From Promethearchaeota archaeon (GTDB lineage Archaea; Asgardarchaeota; Lokiarchaeia; Sigyniarchaeales; SOKP01), in contig JAHPZE010000005.1 in NCBI GenBank assembly GCA_019058365.1, forward strand, positions 32,001-96,000: 64,000 nucleotides of DNA, read 5' to 3'. Numbering within the stretch: position 1 is the first letter of the stretch; each line of letters starts with the position of its first letter. The notes below the pieces were generated by a model. That model saw only the letters and a list, made by a program, of their open reading frames with translations. It was not told the origin of the DNA and did not search any database. Of this stretch, positions 10,126-33,175 are shown one piece after another. A program made the position numbers and the translations under genes.

Positions 10126-10292
10126 ATTTTAATTAATGTTTATATTGGATTTAATATTAATTGCCAAATTACCTTTTGAAAAGATTGACATAATTGGAAA
10201 AACACTAAAAAACTATATTAAGTATTTCATTGAACATTGATTATACAAAAAAATAAAGAAGTTCTAAAAAAAAAAAACATAAGTGACTAATT

Positions 10293-15361: not shown

Positions 15362-15618
15362 AGAGTTTTAAACCAAAACTTAGTTGACTTTTTTTTTTTA
15401 AAAACCCATTTATTTAATTAGCTAATTTCTAGTTTAAGCGCAAAACTATTTAAAAATTATGTAAAAAAAAAAAAATTTGCCTTTTTAATAATGTAAAAAA
15501 AATGGGCATTATCCAATTTCTCACTCTGATATAAATTTAATAAAATATAATTATGATTATTAACTAATTTTTTAATACAGTTTATTTAAAAAACAGAAAA
15601 TAATTTGTTGATTTTATT

Positions 15619-16803
15619 ATGGATTTTTCCTTAACTGAAAAGCAAAAAATGTTAAAAAAAATAACGAGAGATTTTGCTGAGGAATATATTATACCTGTAG
15701 CAAAGGAAAGCGATGAAAAACAAGAATTAAATGAGACTACATTCAAAAAAATGCAAGAAATGAATTTTTTTGGAGGATGTCTTCCAGAAGAATATGGAGG
15801 AGCAGGGCTTCACAATGATACAATAGGCTTTAGCATTATTATTGAAGAAATTGGTCGTGCTGATGCGGCATGGGGAATTGTCATTGCTGTGCATAATGGA
15901 GTTGCAGCATACCCTATTTATAAATTTGGAACTGAAGACCAAAAACAAAGATTTTTAGAAGATCTTGCGAAAGGTAACAAAGTAGGAGCTTTTTGTTTAA
16001 CCGAAGCGAATGCAGGTTCTGATGCGGGAGGAGTTCAATTAACCGCAGTTAAAGATGGAGATGAATATATTTTGAATGGTACTAAAATATTTGCCACATC
16101 TGGAGGTATTGCTAAAACATTGTTAGTTGTAGCTAAAACAGGAGAAAAAGACAGTAGAAGACAGATGACTGTATTTATTGTAGATGGAGATACCCCTGGT
16201 TATTCTGTTGGAGTAAAAGAGGATAAATTAGGTGTAAGAGCTTCAAATACTTCAGAACTTGTATTCGAAGATGTACGAGTACCCCAAGAAAATATTTTAG
16301 GAAAAGATGGAGAAGGTTTTAAGATGGCAATGAAAATCTTAGATTTTGGAAGGATAGGCATTGCTGCTCAATGTGTGGGTCTAGGGCAAGCTGCATTAGA
16401 GGCTTCAGTTAAATATTCAAATGAAAGAGTCCAATTTGGAAAACCTATAGGGAGATTTCAGGGAGTACAATGGAAGATAGCGGATATGGCATGTGCTGTG
16501 GAGTCAGCTCGTTTATTCACATATAAAGCAGCTTATTTACATGATAAGGGAGAAGATTTTGGAATGGCTAGTTCAATGGCAAAATTAGTAGCCTCTGAAG
16601 CTGCAATGCAAGCAGCTCATGGAGCTGTTCAAATCCATGGAGGTTATGGTCTAATGAAAGCATATCCCGTAGAAAGATATTTCCGAGATGCCAAGATGGG
16701 TGATTATACAGCTATCTCAGCTGTGTAGCCAAAAATTTATGAGGGCACCTCTGAAATTCAAAGACTAGTAATTGCGGGAAATTTATTAAGAAAAGGTTTC
16801 TAA
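15619..16803 (+). CDS. Acyl-CoA dehydrogenase (butyryl-CoA dehydrogenase-like); exons 15619-16703 and 16734-16803, 384 aa after removing a 30-nt intron
   Basis: FCLTEANAGSD, LNGTKIF, KLGVRAS, GRIGIAAQ, QIHGGYG; the conserved tail EIYEGTSEIQRLVIAGNLLRKGF lies in frame beyond the TAG at 16726-16728. Confidence 0.92.
16704..16733 (+). other. Candidate bulge-helix-bulge (EndA-type) intron in an mRNA
   Basis: TTATACAGCTATCTCAGCTGTGTAGCCAAA; 9-bp stem with 5-nt loop; bulges GAU and AAA around the central GGGU/GCCA helix; excision restores GAA ATT TAT GAG. Confidence 0.8.
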
Positions 16804-16821
16804 TATTAAACCTTTTTTTTT
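16791..16821 (+). terminator. Hairpin plus T-tract terminator candidate after the acyl-CoA dehydrogenase
   Basis: AAAAGGTTT-ctaatatt-AAACCTTTT overlapping a 9-T run, centred on the TAA at 16801-16803. Confidence 0.6.
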
Positions 16822-17118
16822 CTTATTTATTAATTTGTATATAAAGTTCAATTTTTAGAGAACAAGATTTAGAAAATTGGAGGGCCTTTTTAAAGAATAA
16901 TTTATATGAAAATATAACTTTGAGCATAAATGAGAAATCATTAATCATTGAGACTATCAAGAAAGATAAGCTCGATAAGGATGATAAAAAACAACTTATC
17001 TATATTAAGCAAACTTCCAACAGAAGACTTGATTTCTTTATTAGGAAATGATTTTAAACACCACATACAAAAATAAATTAAATGGGGTTGGAATTTTGAT
17101 TCAGCGGTTAAGAAACTA

Positions 17119-18567
17119 ATGATACAAAATTTTTTAAATACTACAGATCTAATTTCAAATTTAGGCGAAAATGATTTAACTTCAGAATTAATCGGAATTT
17201 TGCTAGGAGATGGTAATTTGTTTTCTAAAAATTATCAAAATCAATTAGATATATCATTAAATCGCATAGATGACCCAAAATACGTATCTTATGTAAAAAA
17301 TTTAATGGAAACACTACTTAATACAGAAATTAAGATAAGCAAACAAAAAGGGAAAGCGATTAGTCTAAGAGTATATAGTAAATTAATTATTAAAACTCTA
17401 GTAAATTTAGGATTAAAAGTTGGAAATAAAGTAAAAAATCAAGTGGGAACTCCTGATTTTATATTTAAAAATATATCTTTCATTATTAGGTGTTTAAAAG
17501 GCTTATTTGATACTGATGGGAGCATAAATGTAGATAATAAAAGAGATATACGATTATCATTTCAAAATTGCTCTAAAACATTAGTAGAGGATTTCTATAG
17601 AATGTGTCTAGCATTAGATATAATCCCATCACCAACAATTAGATATGATGAAAAAAGAGTTGCTTGGAGGGTTGATGTTGCAAAGAAAGATTCTATTTTA
17701 AAATTTTTCCAAATCATCAAACCTGAGAAATTAAAAGAACCCTTTAGGCGAATTTGGATCGCTTCAAAATTAATTTACCTAAATTCTTCTGAAGCTGAGC
17801 AACAAAGAATACGTAATAAAATAAAAATATGGATAAAGCAAAATAACAAAAAAATATTTAAATATTCAAAGAAAAATGCCTTTTTTTTAAAAGATACGTG
17901 CGAAAAGACATTAGGTATTACTATAGATAATGATTTAATCAACAAAACTATTTCAAAGGTCTTAGATCTCGAGAAATATATGTATGATGAATCTAGAGCT
18001 GAACATTTAAAGGTTTTATATGAAAAACTTAGGTCTACACTTAGAATTGTTGAATATTTAATAGATCAAGGAGAAGTTAACATACCACATAGACAGACAA
18101 TTATAGCACATCTAAAAAAATATTTTAAAGAAAAAAATCTTGATTATCAGAAATGGCTAAATGAGAATCCGAAAATGAGGATTGGAATAAATGAGGATAA
18201 TCAGATCCATGTCTTTCCAAATGAGCTACGTAATATTCTTAATGAAATAATTTGTAGAATCTTAATAAAATATAAAAATAAAATTTCTGAGACTAAAATT
18301 ATTAAGTTGTTAAAAGAAGAATTTGAAAATCAAGATTTAATCATAATGAATTGGTTACTTAACAGTACTAAATATAATAAGCCAACTTATCAATATTTAA
18401 ATAATTTAATCTTCCTTAATAAGAAATTGATTGAAAATTATATTAATAAAGAAAAAACAAATATTACATTATTATCAAAAGATCCATTTGTCCCATTTGA
18501 TAGAAGAACAATAACATTAATGGTTGATCATTTAATTAAGATTGGAATTTTAAAACATGATGAATAA
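17119..18567 (+). CDS. Free-standing two-motif LAGLIDADG (intein/DOD-type) homing endonuclease with long C-terminal extension
   Basis: ELIGILLGDGNL and CLKGLFDTDGSI motifs about 100 aa apart with acidic catalytic residues retained; GLKVGNK and PDFIF elements; no intein splicing termini. Confidence 0.85.
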   Translation: MIQNFLNTTDLISNLGENDLTSELIGILLGDGNLFSKNYQNQLDISLNRIDDPKYVSYVKNLMETLLNTEIKISKQKGKAISLRVYSKLIIKTLVNLGLKVGNKVKNQVGTPDFIFKNISFIIRCLKGLFDTDGSINVDNKRDIRLSFQNCSKTLVEDFYRMCLALDIIPSPTIRYDEKRVAWRVDVAKKDSILKFFQIIKPEKLKEPFRRIWIASKLIYLNSSEAEQQRIRNKIKIWIKQNNKKIFKYSKKNAFFLKDTCEKTLGITIDNDLINKTISKVLDLEKYMYDESRAEHLKVLYEKLRSTLRIVEYLIDQGEVNIPHRQTIIAHLKKYFKEKNLDYQKWLNENPKMRIGINEDNQIHVFPNELRNILNEIICRILIKYKNKISETKIIKLLKEEFENQDLIIMNWLLNSTKYNKPTYQYLNNLIFLNKKLIENYINKEKTNITLLSKDPFVPFDRRTITLMVDHLIKIGILKHDE

Positions 18568-18693
18568 CAATAATTTAATTTTTTCTCAATTTTTTATTTT
18601 GTTATCGGAAAATTTATTTTTTTAAAAATTTTTATTCCTTTTAAAACAAATTATATGATTTTTGAGTTGAGGTAATAAGGTAGTGATTTCGGA

Positions 18694-19500
18694 TTGAAAG
18701 TTTTTGTGTGTATTAAACAAGTACCAGGGGTTTCAGAAGTAAAAATCGACCCAAACACTAATACACTTGTAAGAGAAGGTGTCCTATCAATACTTAATCC
18801 GAATGATCGAAATGCTCTTGAATTAGCTTTAATACTTAAGGAAAAACAAAGTTCAGAAGTTATAGCATTAAGCATGGGCCCCCCTCAAGCAGAAGAAATA
18901 TTACGCGAAGCTTTAGCAATGGGAGTAGATAGAGGGGTTTTATTAAGCGATAAAGCTTTTGCTGGGGCAGATACTTTAGCTACATCACACACTCTTGCTT
19001 TAGCAATTAAAAAGATATTAAAAGAATCTAATTCAGAAGAAAAATACATTATAATCTGCGGTGCTCAGGCGATAGATGGAGATACTGGTCAAGTACCACC
19101 AGAATTAGCAGAAGAATTGGGAATTCCGCAAATAACTTATGTTCAGAATGTTGAATTAAGTGAAGATAAAATTATCGCAGAGAGAAAATTTAGAGCTACT
19201 GAGATTGTCATTATTGAAACTAATTTACCTGCATTAATTTCAGTATTAACCGATATAAATAAACCTAGATATCCTAGTATGTCGGGAATTATGAAAGCCT
19301 ATGAAAAAGCAAATGTAATATATTTAGATTCAAATGCAATAAATGCAGATAAATCTAAAATTGGCTTAAATGGTTCTATGACTGAAGTCAGGAAAATTTT
19401 CATTCCTAAAAGAAAGGTAAACCCAATCATGTTAGAAGGGTCCACTGAAGAAGTTGTTCAAAATTTATGTCAACATTTAAAAGAGGATAAAATTTTTTAA
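18694..19500 (+). CDS. etfB: Electron transfer flavoprotein beta subunit
   Basis: VCIKQVP, NPNDRNALE, SMGPPQAEE, GADTLAT, QAIDGDTGQV, PRYPS. Confidence 0.95.
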   Translation: MKVFVCIKQVPGVSEVKIDPNTNTLVREGVLSILNPNDRNALELALILKEKQSSEVIALSMGPPQAEEILREALAMGVDRGVLLSDKAFAGADTLATSHTLALAIKKILKESNSEEKYIIICGAQAIDGDTGQVPPELAEELGIPQITYVQNVELSEDKIIAERKFRATEIVIIETNLPALISVLTDINKPRYPSMSGIMKAYEKANVIYLDSNAINADKSKIGLNGSMTEVRKIFIPKRKVNPIMLEGSTEEVVQNLCQHLKEDKIF

Positions 19501-19513
19501 GAGGATTATTCAT

Positions 19514-20713
19514 TTGAGTATAATAATTGATGAGGAATTGTGTACTGGGTGCGCTAGCTGTAAGGAGAGTTGCATTTATGGAGCTATTGAATTAGAAAAC
19601 AATATAGCAAAGGTTCTACCTAATTGTACATTATGTGGAGCATGTGTAGAAACTTGTCCCGAAGAAGCAATTTCATTGGAACGGGGTGACGTTAAAGCTC
19701 AAAAAATGGATCTCTCCCTATTTAAAGGCGTTTGGATTATTGCAGAACATTACAATAAAAAAATTAATAATGTTTCATTACAACTACTAAGTAAAGGACG
19801 AGAATTAGCTGATATCTTAAAAGTAAATTTATCACTTATTATATTAGGAGCTAGTTTCGATGATAAATTAGAAGAGCTTAGCCTATATGGAATGGATGAG
19901 ATCATATATATTAAATCACCGATTTTGAAGGATTACTATTCAGATTTATATACAAAAGTAATTACAGAATTAGTATTAGAAAACAAACCTGAAATTATAT
20001 TAATTGGGGCTACCCCTACCGGAAGAGATTTTGCCCCTAGAGTGGCAAAAAGACTTAATGCTGGGTTAACAGCAGACTGTACGGGATTAGAGATAGATCT
20101 TGAAGCAGGAAATCTACTTCAAACTCGTCCAACATATGGTGGAGCGATTATGGCAACTATTAGAACACCTTCTAGTAGACCACAAATGGCAACTGTAAGA
20201 GCTGGCATTTTTAGTATGCCTGAAAAAGTGAAAAAAAAGGTAAATATTAGGAAAATTGAGTATGAATTTGAAGAGAAAGATTCAGTTTCAAAAATTGTAA
20301 AAGTAATAAGTAAAACAAAAACCAATGTTAACCTTGAGGATGCTAAAATTATAGTTGCTGGAGGGCGTGGTGTAGGTTCCAGAGAAGGATTTCGAGTTAT
20401 AGAAAAATTAGCAGAAGTTTTAGATGCTGAACTGGGAGGATCCAGGATAACTGTGGAATTAAATTGGTTAGATCCAGATAGACAAATAGGTCAGACAGGT
20501 AAAACCGTAACTCCAAAACTATATATTGCTTGTGGAATCTCTGGTGCGATTCAACATATAGTTGGAATGGAAAATTCAGAAATTGTTGTTGCAATAAATA
20601 AAGACCCTAATGCTCCGATATTTAATTGGTCGCATTATGGTATTGTTGGAGATCTTCATGAAATTATACCAGTTTTAATAGAGGAGATTAAAAAGATTAA
20701 AGTGGATGAATAG
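19514..20713 (+). CDS. etfA: Electron transfer flavoprotein alpha subunit with N-terminal 2[4Fe-4S] ferredoxin domain
   Basis: CTGCASCKESC and CTLCGACVETCP; QIGQTGKTV, GISGAIQH, AINKDPNAPIF. Confidence 0.95.
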   Translation: MSIIIDEELCTGCASCKESCIYGAIELENNIAKVLPNCTLCGACVETCPEEAISLERGDVKAQKMDLSLFKGVWIIAEHYNKKINNVSLQLLSKGRELADILKVNLSLIILGASFDDKLEELSLYGMDEIIYIKSPILKDYYSDLYTKVITELVLENKPEIILIGATPTGRDFAPRVAKRLNAGLTADCTGLEIDLEAGNLLQTRPTYGGAIMATIRTPSSRPQMATVRAGIFSMPEKVKKKVNIRKIEYEFEEKDSVSKIVKVISKTKTNVNLEDAKIIVAGGRGVGSREGFRVIEKLAEVLDAELGGSRITVELNWLDPDRQIGQTGKTVTPKLYIACGISGAIQHIVGMENSEIVVAINKDPNAPIFNWSHYGIVGDLHEIIPVLIEEIKKIKVDE

Positions 20714-31624: not shown

Positions 31625-33175
31625 TTATTCAAATTGCATTGCTAATTCAAATAATTCTGTAATATCATAGATTTTCAATGATCTTTCAGTAAAATTTTTC
31701 GTCCGAGAAGCAAAACGGAAGTTTAATTGGCATTGTGGACAAGCTGTTGTTAAAATATTAACATTTGTAGGGATAAAATCTTCTTTTAACCTTGTTTGGG
31801 TTGATTGTAAACTTACATCATTATTAAATGTCCAAAGTCCACCTCCACCTCCGCAACATCTGGCACAATTTCTATTCAATGGCATTTCAACAAGATTAAG
31901 ATGAGGTATTGCTTTTAATACGTTACGAGGTGGATTATAGACGTTACAATGTCTTCCAAGTGAACAGGGGTCATGATAAGTTACATTTAAATCTAAAGGT
32001 TTAAGGTTAATTTCTTCAGTTTTAATCTTTTTTTCAAGAAATTGAGAAGTATGGAGAATTTCACAAGGCATATTAATATCAAGGATTTCAGGATAAAGCC
32101 TTTTGAAGGTATAGTAACAACCAGAACAAGGAGTTACTAAAGTTTGAGCCTTAGTTTTTTCAATCCTTTCAACAGTATCGTTCGCAACTTTTTTAGCTTC
32201 TTCCCATAATCCAGATGAAATTAATACATAACCACAGCATCCTTCTTTATTCCCTAACGTTGTAAATTCAGTATTGCTTCGGTTTAAAATATTAATAAAT
32301 GCTTCAGCTGTTTTTGGAGTTCTAGTTGCTACAGTACACCCTAACCAGCATAGAGTATTTGCTTTTTCTGGTAAATTCAAATTAGAAATGTTTTTTACTC
32401 GTAAAAGACGCCGATTAGTAGGTATTGCAGAAGGGTCTCCATGTTCAAAAATGTTATCAGCTGCAGTGTGAAATACCTGTGGTGCCAAATTTTTTTCAGC
32501 GATAAGATGTCTCAAATAAAGTATTGCTTCATGAAACTCTAAATCTTGAAAACATTGAGCATAACAAAGTCCACATTTTGTACAACTATATAATATATCC
32601 ACAATCTTGTCTGAAAATATTAAATCACCTTTCATTATACCTCTAGTAATAAGCATTCTTCCTTTCGATGACCATGATTCGACTCCATTAAAGGAAGAGC
32701 TTACTGTGCAATAACCACTACATGTAGTGCACTGCTGGCACTTAGTTAGTGTTTTTCCTAAAAATAAGTTCTGTAATGCTAAAGCAAGATTTCTATAAGT
32801 CCCGTATCCTTTTATATCTAATTTATCAAATTTTGCTCTACTTCCATCCTTTTTTCCAGTCCCATCGATACAATTTTTAAGCGTAGGAATTTCTACATTA
32901 TCTAATAAAACTATAGTTTTAGATGATTTGTTCCTATTGTGCGAAAAAATTTTACCCCTTTCAATTAAAATAGCGTCTTTATTTTCAAAAAATCTTTTTA
33001 CTTCGTTTTCTTCCTTCAAAGAAGAAACTCTAACAATAATATCAGGTTGTATATCAATTCTATCAAGAAAAATCTTTTCAAAAGAATAGACATAACGGTC
33101 TTCTAAATCTGTTAGAACTTGACCTTTTTTTATAACCCGTTTCAATTGTTCAGTAATTCTATCTTTAGAATTCAT
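31625..33175 (-). CDS. GlcF/HdrD-like Fe-S oxidoreductase with two CCG domains and a GlcD-like N-terminal remnant
   Basis: CQQCTTCSGYC, CTKCGLCYAQC, WLGC, GCCG, TYHDPCSLGR, CCGGGGG, TACPQC. Confidence 0.88.
   Translation of the reverse strand: MNSKDRITEQLKRVIKKGQVLTDLEDRYVYSFEKIFLDRIDIQPDIIVRVSSLKEENEVKRFFENKDAILIERGKIFSHNRNKSSKTIVLLDNVEIPTLKNCIDGTGKKDGSRAKFDKLDIKGYGTYRNLALALQNLFLGKTLTKCQQCTTCSGYCTVSSSFNGVESWSSKGRMLITRGIMKGDLIFSDKIVDILYSCTKCGLCYAQCFQDLEFHEAILYLRHLIAEKNLAPQVFHTAADNIFEHGDPSAIPTNRRLLRVKNISNLNLPEKANTLCWLGCTVATRTPKTAEAFINILNRSNTEFTTLGNKEGCCGYVLISSGLWEEAKKVANDTVERIEKTKAQTLVTPCSGCYYTFKRLYPEILDINMPCEILHTSQFLEKKIKTEEINLKPLDLNVTYHDPCSLGRHCNVYNPPRNVLKAIPHLNLVEMPLNRNCARCCGGGGGLWTFNNDVSLQSTQTRLKEDFIPTNVNILTTACPQCQLNFRFASRTKNFTERSLKIYDITELFELAMQFE

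Follow-up and report, generated by a model that had tools for sequence, protein, structure and literature searches.

Within a 64,000-nt stretch of a lokiarchaeal genome (Promethearchaeota archaeon, contig JAHPZE010000005.1 of assembly GCA_019058365.1, positions 32,001 to 96,000; hereafter the window, G000:C46:32001-96000, where G000 is the source genome, other G codes are genomes of relatives and L codes are fetched loci), an acyl-CoA dehydrogenase (ACAD) gene is interrupted by a 30-nt insert and is followed by a free-standing gene of the LAGLIDADG endonuclease family. The feature is real. We propose, with a probability of roughly 0.7, that positions 16704-18568 form a homing cassette that comprises a bulge-helix-bulge (BHB) micro-intron, a replacement 3′ end for ACAD, optional cargo and the LAGLIDADG endonuclease. 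The gene order is ACAD (15619 onward), the LAGLIDADG open reading frame (ORF; 17119-18567), etfB and etfA. The first-pass annotation of the window had described a 482-residue, two-motif LAGLIDADG ORF that starts 385 bp after the intron, lies neither inside the intron nor in an intein, and separates genes that are usually contiguous. Its coordinates were correct, and etfB directly follows the ACAD gene in 17 relatives without the intron.

Structure of the 30-nt insert

Exon 1 of the host gene, which encodes a short-chain/butyryl-CoA-type ACAD (Pfam Acyl-CoA_dh N, M and 1), occupies 15619-16703 (+). The insert, at 16704-16733 (+), contains no ORF, is in frame, carries a TAG stop and splits the Glu codon of the motif MGEIYEG; the ACAD reading frame ends at 16728, within the insert and just before this catalytic motif. 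The same motif is read straight through in 27 homologues (26 complete ones and that of G027). The insert folds into a 9-bp hairpin (z −4.5), and together with the adjoining exon bases it forms a BHB motif at 16694-16738 (+), which comprises an exon-exon helix of 4 bp (16694-97/16735-38), a central helix (16698-701/16728-31), two bulges of 3 nt each (16702-04 and 16732-34) and the 9-bp intron stem (16705-13/16719-27). The central helix has three of four pairs in the window, making this a relaxed BHB, and all four in L119, L122 and L123. Excision after the second base of each bulge would give a 384-residue protein with MGEIYEG, like that of the intron-less orthologues. By chance, excision at random places in exon 1 produced the pattern in none of 11,143 cases, and sampling across the genome gave a rate of 2.2e-5 per site.

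Sequence variants of the intron are also present in G031, G061, G063, L116/117, L119, L120-122 and L123, and the host ACAD proteins of the intron alleles are 67-93% identical to that of the window. All eight alleles keep the 30-nt length, the position and the pairing despite their varying sequence, and exon 2 is intact in every one of them. Over the eight alleles 93.4% of the cells are paired, as against 32-38% in slid controls, and five pairs show two-sided changes; the covariation score was reached by none of 500 shuffles, a count that is not a probability because the sequences are related. In L119 and L123 a change of the exon codon from Gly to Ala is matched by a change in the intron, which makes the central helix complete (4/4). 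The source genome encodes two EndA paralogues (tRNA_int_endo) and RtcB. Taken together, structure, covariation and reading frame indicate that the insert is almost certainly removed by splicing of the EndA/RtcB type. The YEG motif, whose Glu we take to be the catalytic base in the ACAD family, lies in exon 2, so an unspliced product would be inactive.

Introns were sought by a homology-first scan and by inspection by eye. The scan gave no second micro-intron in the window among the genes with available homologues, and no tRNA gene was found in the 64 kb. Rfam returned nothing relevant, and the 30-nt hairpin is far too short for a group I ribozyme. Pattern matches in G064, G002 and G017 were discarded as not being ACAD genes: no ACAD match came from G064, from G017 or from the locus in G002.

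Joint inheritance of intron, exon 2 and nuclease

The intron is present in all seven alleles that have an ACAD-clade nuclease and a visible junction (each on one contig in G000, G031, L116/117, L119, L120-122 and L123; in G061 the two halves are on separate contigs), and a nuclease lies next to the ACAD gene in none of the 27 uninterrupted homologues. The co-occurrence that had been proposed for this locus was therefore borne out. Close-type nucleases (at least 90% identity) were found in only three of 54 genomes of the genus (G000, G031 and G061), and the introns of all three are near-identical. As a prospective test, four database homologues were chosen by nuclease homology alone (P0010, 94%; P0012, 58%; P0014, 50%; P0016, 48%); all four adjoin an ACAD gene with a 30-nt intron, and in the three that are 48-58% identical the nuclease is inverted.

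The history of the cassette differs from that of its surroundings. Between G000 and both G031 and G061, the synonymous divergence (dS) is 0.18-0.31 for the nuclease, 0.53-0.55 for ACAD exon 1 and 0.43-0.47 for etfB, which makes the cassette younger than both flanking genes. In a tree of the middle of exon 1, G000 is sister to the empty allele of G005 and G031 is sister to the empty allele of G027 (both 100/100), while G061 and L116 are placed among other empty alleles. As judged from these allele comparisons, intron, exon 2 and nuclease have been inherited jointly and horizontally.

Borders and decay of the cassette

The alignment with the closest empty allele, that of G005, breaks off after 16703 and picks up again at 18569, which defines a foreign block of 16704-18568; the stretch singled out by the first-pass annotation, 16704-18567, matches this block. 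Exon 2, at 16734-16803 (+), is an imported replacement of the gene's 3′ end that contains the YEG motif. Over 72 positions it has three mismatches to G031 and 12-25 to all empty alleles, in line with the earlier suggestion that exon 2 had been co-converted. Its Ser codon, 12-17 nt downstream, is TCN in all eight intron alleles and AGY in the empty close relatives. A probable co-conversion tract covers the 3′ end of exon 1 (16524-16703, +), with its left edge between nt 864 and 906 of the coding sequence. Informative sites at coding nt 156-864 side with the empty G005 by 80:4, and those from nt 906 side with the occupied G031 by 14:8; the last ~180 nt of exon 1 thus switch from G005-like to G031-like, as co-conversion predicts. 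We regard this tract as supportive only, because recombination has made the region a mosaic and the special closeness to G005 is confined to mid-gene.

Downstream of exon 2, the segment 16804-16870 (+) is element-derived spacer and includes the point at which, compared with G031, ~1.36 kb has been deleted. In blastn alignments, window positions 15501-16853 correspond to L050 842-2194 and 16871-18800 to L050 3552-5483. The deletion, at 16854-16870, removed the nuclease gene's 5′ part along with a CDC48-N-like cargo gene. What is left of the 5′ part, 16871-17118 (+), is a decayed remnant with a 2-nt deletion and a premature stop. In L116 (550 residues), G031 (818), G061 (at least 950) and L113 (1223) this stretch and the nuclease share one reading frame, so that the ATG at 17119 corresponds to an internal Met of a longer gene; the 482-residue ORF is the tail of this gene and not a whole gene, as had first been assumed. 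Because compact, cargo-free nuclease alleles of ~470 residues exist at the ACAD site, the short form from ATG 17119 is plausible as a working protein.

Different alleles show different stages of this process. The original, displaced 3′ end of the ACAD gene is kept in L120-122, decayed in L123 and lost in G000. G063 has the intron and cargo remnants, and its assembly contains no close nuclease, which suggests decay toward an intron-only state; since the G063 locus is split across contigs, we rejected it as a proven allele with intron and without nuclease.

The foreign block is followed by host intergenic DNA (18569-18693, +), which the alignment to the empty G005 marks as the right-hand homology arm of the cassette, and then by the host genes etfB (18694-19500, +) and etfA (19514-20713, +), the latter of the Fe-S-containing type. 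The intact ACAD orthologue of G005 matches solved SCAD/BCD chains at E 3e-121.

The endonuclease

The nuclease gene (17119-18567, +) begins 385 bp past the last base of the insert (16733), and its product is predicted from sequence to be a free-standing, two-motif LAGLIDADG endonuclease of 482 residues. The protein matches PF14528 (E 2.5e-12) and consists of an I-DmoI-like core (residues ~13-202) and a helical C-terminal part with a weak helix-turn-helix (HTH)-like unit (residues ~288-353). The aspartates of both LAGLIDADG motifs, Asp31 and Asp133, are invariant in 22 homologues. A structure model (mean confidence, pLDDT, of 89) gave I-DmoI as the top Foldseek matches, along with intein endonucleases, and superposed on 2vs8 with Z 17.7 and a root-mean-square deviation of 2.1 Å over 163 residues. 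For the C-terminal region, structure comparison returned weak HTH-like matches only (Z 5-6), and an Atlas search gave no usable match.

The ratio of non-synonymous to synonymous rates (dN/dS) of the nuclease is 0.11-0.36. Among changes private to G000, 17 are synonymous and five non-synonymous, none of the latter in the core, where neutral evolution would give ~4 non-synonymous changes per synonymous one. By this measure the core ORF is kept under purifying selection. A promoter and terminator scan was at chance level (17 versus 14.7), and its models are of the bacterial type, so that it is uninformative on expression of the nuclease.

Related nucleases at other genes

In their tree the nucleases of the family cluster by target gene, and a single clade (99/95) unites the 13 that are next to ACAD 3′ ends or to etfB. 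Its members include that of L131 (40% identity), which adjoins an ACAD paralogue carrying a BHB-like insert of 29 nt where the homologous motif lies, and that of L130, next to the same paralogue. Beyond ACAD genes, BHB inserts of 30-31 nt occur at four of 14 other targets, always in the gene end nearest to the nuclease: in a thiolase gene (just after the CASG motif), a metallo-beta-lactamase-fold gene, a CaiB gene and a longin-HTH gene. The intron of CaiB is represented by two alleles with compensatory changes. Against a background of ~4 micro-inserts in 704 gene segments, the binomial probability of four in 14 is 1.5e-5; this background is a lower bound, because the detector misses short exons and missed CaiB itself. 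Together with the L131 paralogue, these cases agree with the earlier expectation that homologous nucleases would lie beside other micro-interrupted genes.

The relation between break and intron is visible where the original gene end has been retained. In L120-122 the original ACAD 3′ end lies on the far side of the nuclease and starts at approximately the splice junction, and in L063 the displaced 3′ end of a metallo-hydrolase gene also starts at approximately the intron junction. That founding break and intron site coincide in two unrelated targets is the best indirect indication of cutting by the enzyme at this site.

Long alleles carry, as cargo, CDC48-N-like, tetratricopeptide-repeat (TPR) and HerA/VirB4-like ATPase genes, and their nuclease has an acidic N-terminal extension. 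In G061, L113 and G077 the HerA/VirB4-like ATPase gene is followed by an acidic-repeat LAGLIDADG protein of 950-1420 residues; the conserved pair, an ATPase gene and an acidic-repeat protein ending in the LAGLIDADG domain, spans L075:6894-12462, L084:5872-12185 and L113:3-5567. This pair is a possible DNA-transfer module, and the thought that the VirB4-like cargo may bring DNA into a recipient cell is a lead only. A weak VirB3-like match was observed upstream of the pair in G061. The CDC48-N-like gene at L063:3685-4379, which lies beside the displaced metallo-hydrolase 3′ end, is 85% identical to the copy in the ACAD cassette of G031, and we infer that cassettes with different targets exchange cargo.

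Separate observations were made around family members. Immediately downstream of a nuclease, the CaiB gene of G021 (L061:1-330, −) has two 31-nt inserts among its initial ~40 codons. The first could not be set in a clean BHB register, and the second is a homologue of the intron in G010, with compensatory changes. Another ACAD-family gene, at L126 ~10210-10250 (−), is shifted out of frame by a 43-nt insert whose central helix is 4/4, and at the same locus a partly duplicated ERCC4 gene surrounds the nuclease. A VWA-type gene of G063 has a 29-nt frameshifting BHB insert (L082:10969-10997, +) 3.6 kb from the nearest LAGLIDADG gene.

Proposed mechanism and competing explanations

When an intron-less and an occupied allele meet in one cell, the nuclease would make a double-strand break in the former, at the MG/EIYEG junction or no more than a few bases away. 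Repair could find its left homology in exon 1 and its right homology in the old 3′ end that was displaced or in the DNA before etfB; intron, new exon 2 and nuclease gene, whose co-inheritance is observed, would thus be copied together. The 30-nt insert would split the recognition site and so shield the occupied allele, with a probable contribution from the divergent exon 2, and the tRNA-splicing endonuclease and RtcB would then excise the insert from the mRNA and restore the 384-residue enzyme. In G000 the cassette has lost its cargo and the N-terminal extension of the nuclease while the core ORF stayed under selection. The sequence comparisons make homing driven by the nuclease very likely. 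Given homing, the intron is probably the determinant of immunity, a more guarded estimate because the divergent exon 2 offers an alternative and because intron-free members exist. The mobile unit is also larger than the two parts first envisaged: intron and nuclease do travel together, but the unit includes the replacement 3′ end, optional cargo and sometimes the displaced original end. The idea of the intron as part of a mobile pair holds at the ACAD locus, and some other members of the family do without an intron.

Several observations weigh against the cassette as proposed. The nuclease of L130 (44% identity) adjoins an uninterrupted ACAD paralogue whose gene end is duplicated and without intron, and the GlpD loci (L053, L054), L078 and L082/L085 likewise show duplicated gene ends and no intron; the nuclease family therefore does not need the intron. 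Exon 2 itself differs from the recipients and could confer immunity alone. The alleles share descent, so that the counts overstate independence, and at a background of 2% per gene the probability of the four interrupted targets rises to ~0.002 (a hand calculation). Inserts of the same kind also occur with no nuclease neighbour seen: in an alba gene (G000:C13:17126-17155, +), a 30-nt insert that contains a stop and has a complete central helix (4/4), and a 30-nt BHB-like insert with a 4/4 helix and a 9-bp stem in an AMP/thymidine-phosphorylase-like gene (G000:C9 ~32940-32975, +).

One competing explanation is a homing cassette in which the intron hitch-hikes: the cut would fall in the ACAD 3′ end, immunity would come from the replacement exon 2, and the intron would have been in the captured fragment already or have arisen in it. 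The intron-free members with duplicated ends (the GlpD loci, L078, L082/L085 and L130) fit such a passenger, as does the TCN Ser codon that all intron alleles share and the empty close relatives lack. We nevertheless consider it unlikely, as the intron is kept in all seven nuclease alleles over 48-94% nuclease identity and in both orientations, displaced ends start at approximately the intron junction in two unrelated targets, and introns at the other targets are enriched and sit at the nuclease-proximal end. Integration, too, leaves duplicated gene ends, and the block might be the relic of an integrative or DNA-transfer element that enters the ends of genes by another route, with the LAGLIDADG domain as a WhiA-like effector or regulator and not as the driver of homing. 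The combination of LAGLIDADG and HTH does resemble WhiA, and the long alleles of G061, L113 and G077 place the HerA/VirB4-like ATPase gene before the acidic-repeat protein. Yet the annotated loci showed neither integrase nor transposase, compact alleles of ~470 residues without cargo occupy the same site, the catalytic aspartates are invariant, the nuclease tree tracks the target gene and the distribution is patchy, all of which renders this origin quite improbable. We give almost no credence to an unspliced insert in a truncated ACAD gene or pseudogene, at a locus that nuclease insertion had simply damaged. The in-frame stop and the presence of about 12 ACAD-family matches in the G000 genome would allow for such a loss, but the exact length, position and pairing are conserved in eight alleles with compensatory changes, dN/dS of ACAD exon 1 is 0.05-0.08, and no allele has a damaged exon 2.

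Comparison with known systems

The proposed homing cassette resembles the collaborative homing of phages, in which a free-standing endonuclease lies beside an endonuclease-lacking group I intron, as in T3/T7-like phages, a cyanophage and the ICP1 terminase gene (PMC10448857, PMC2988022); homing in trans is described for T4 mobE (PMC2790892). Common to both are an ORF-less intron in a conserved coding site, a nuclease gene beside the host gene, and joint inheritance with co-conversion. The present system differs in its 30-nt BHB hairpin, predicted to be spliced by proteins, its archaeal chromosome, its two-motif LAGLIDADG enzyme and its replacement exon 2. In the phage type the nuclease cuts at the intron site and the intron blocks it; here both are predicted, and the displaced ends that start near the junction are an indirect sign of the cutting. 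Since the intron is not of group I, the locus is not a member of the phage type.

The intron itself is comparable to that in the cbf5 pre-mRNA of Crenarchaeota, whose origin has been called unclear and which is too short to encode a nuclease (PMC2738675). It shares with that intron a short (16-44 nt), ORF-less BHB structure in an archaeal coding sequence, a relaxed motif and a hetero-oligomeric EndA, but it lies in another gene and phylum, and a nuclease gene is linked to it physically and phylogenetically. Within the literature searched, cbf5 was the only documented coding-sequence BHB intron that we found, and no BHB mRNA intron paired with an external nuclease was found in a search that left most subscription papers outside. 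With archaeal rRNA BHB introns (I-DmoI, I-Tsp061I) the locus has in common BHB splicing, here predicted, and a two-motif LAGLIDADG of the same fold, to which the best Foldseek matches belong; here, by contrast, the intron does not contain the ORF, an mRNA gene is the target, and the nuclease has ~270 additional residues at its C terminus and often a long acidic extension at its N terminus. The position of the ORF, which begins 385 bp past the intron, excludes an rRNA-type intron with an internal endonuclease. An intein-associated LAGLIDADG is excluded as well, because the ORF, located between the ACAD stop and etfB, has no Hint (intein) domain and is separate from the host protein. Domesticated LAGLIDADG proteins of the WhiA type have lost their catalytic residues and are inherited vertically. 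This class was ruled out by the invariant aspartates and by the occurrence of close homologues in so few of the genus genomes.

Duplicated gene ends link the cassette to a further class. The free-standing homing endonuclease of Allomyces atp6 reportedly comes with a duplicated or replaced gene end. Partial duplications of gene ends accompany free-standing homing endonucleases in fungal mitochondrial atp6, atp9 and cox1 (PMC7487136), and the 'intronless homing' of T4 Seg enzymes is a related background case (PMC2988022). Like these endonucleases, the present nuclease is inserted at a gene end together with a spare end and displaces the original (L120-122, L123, L130 and the GlpD loci); unlike them, it resides in an archaeal chromosome, and its junction often has a micro-intron for which splicing is predicted.

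Possible intron gain in lokiarchaeal genes

We see slightly better than even odds that lokiarchaeal LAGLIDADG cassettes are a general engine of intron gain, in which each clade would target a conserved motif near a gene end and owe its protection to a BHB hairpin of ~30 nt where the cut is made, the tRNA-splicing machinery would remove the hairpin, and decay of the nuclease would leave a stand-alone mRNA intron. If so, a class of protein-spliced, selfishly spreading mRNA introns would exist in the closest prokaryotic relatives of eukaryotes, and the ACAD locus would offer a concrete route by which tiny introns spread into archaeal protein genes. The parts of this route can be named: the nuclease is defined, its target is predicted, occupied alleles have empty sisters, and decay is seen in stages. 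The family may also be a source of new meganucleases with predictable targets. For annotation, such Asgard genes are truncated by gene callers, as in the 369-residue ACAD calls at the fetched loci.

Other LAGLIDADG sequences were noted in passing. Several family members lie just downstream of tRNA genes for Arg, Tyr and Ser (L059:6544-6619, L064:6860-7190, L077:5600-5750 and L080:1371-1454), and some tRNA genes beside nucleases have multiple non-canonical introns missed by ARAGORN; at tRNA-Arg and tRNA-Tyr, the two that were checked, no simple pattern linked nuclease and intron. In G000, a LAGLIDADG domain within a 1218-residue ORF (C35:55947-59603) probably belongs to an intein, and a 211-residue LAGLIDADG ORF in apparent 23S rRNA sequence (G000:C35:94651-95286, −) is probably a classical rRNA intron endonuclease.

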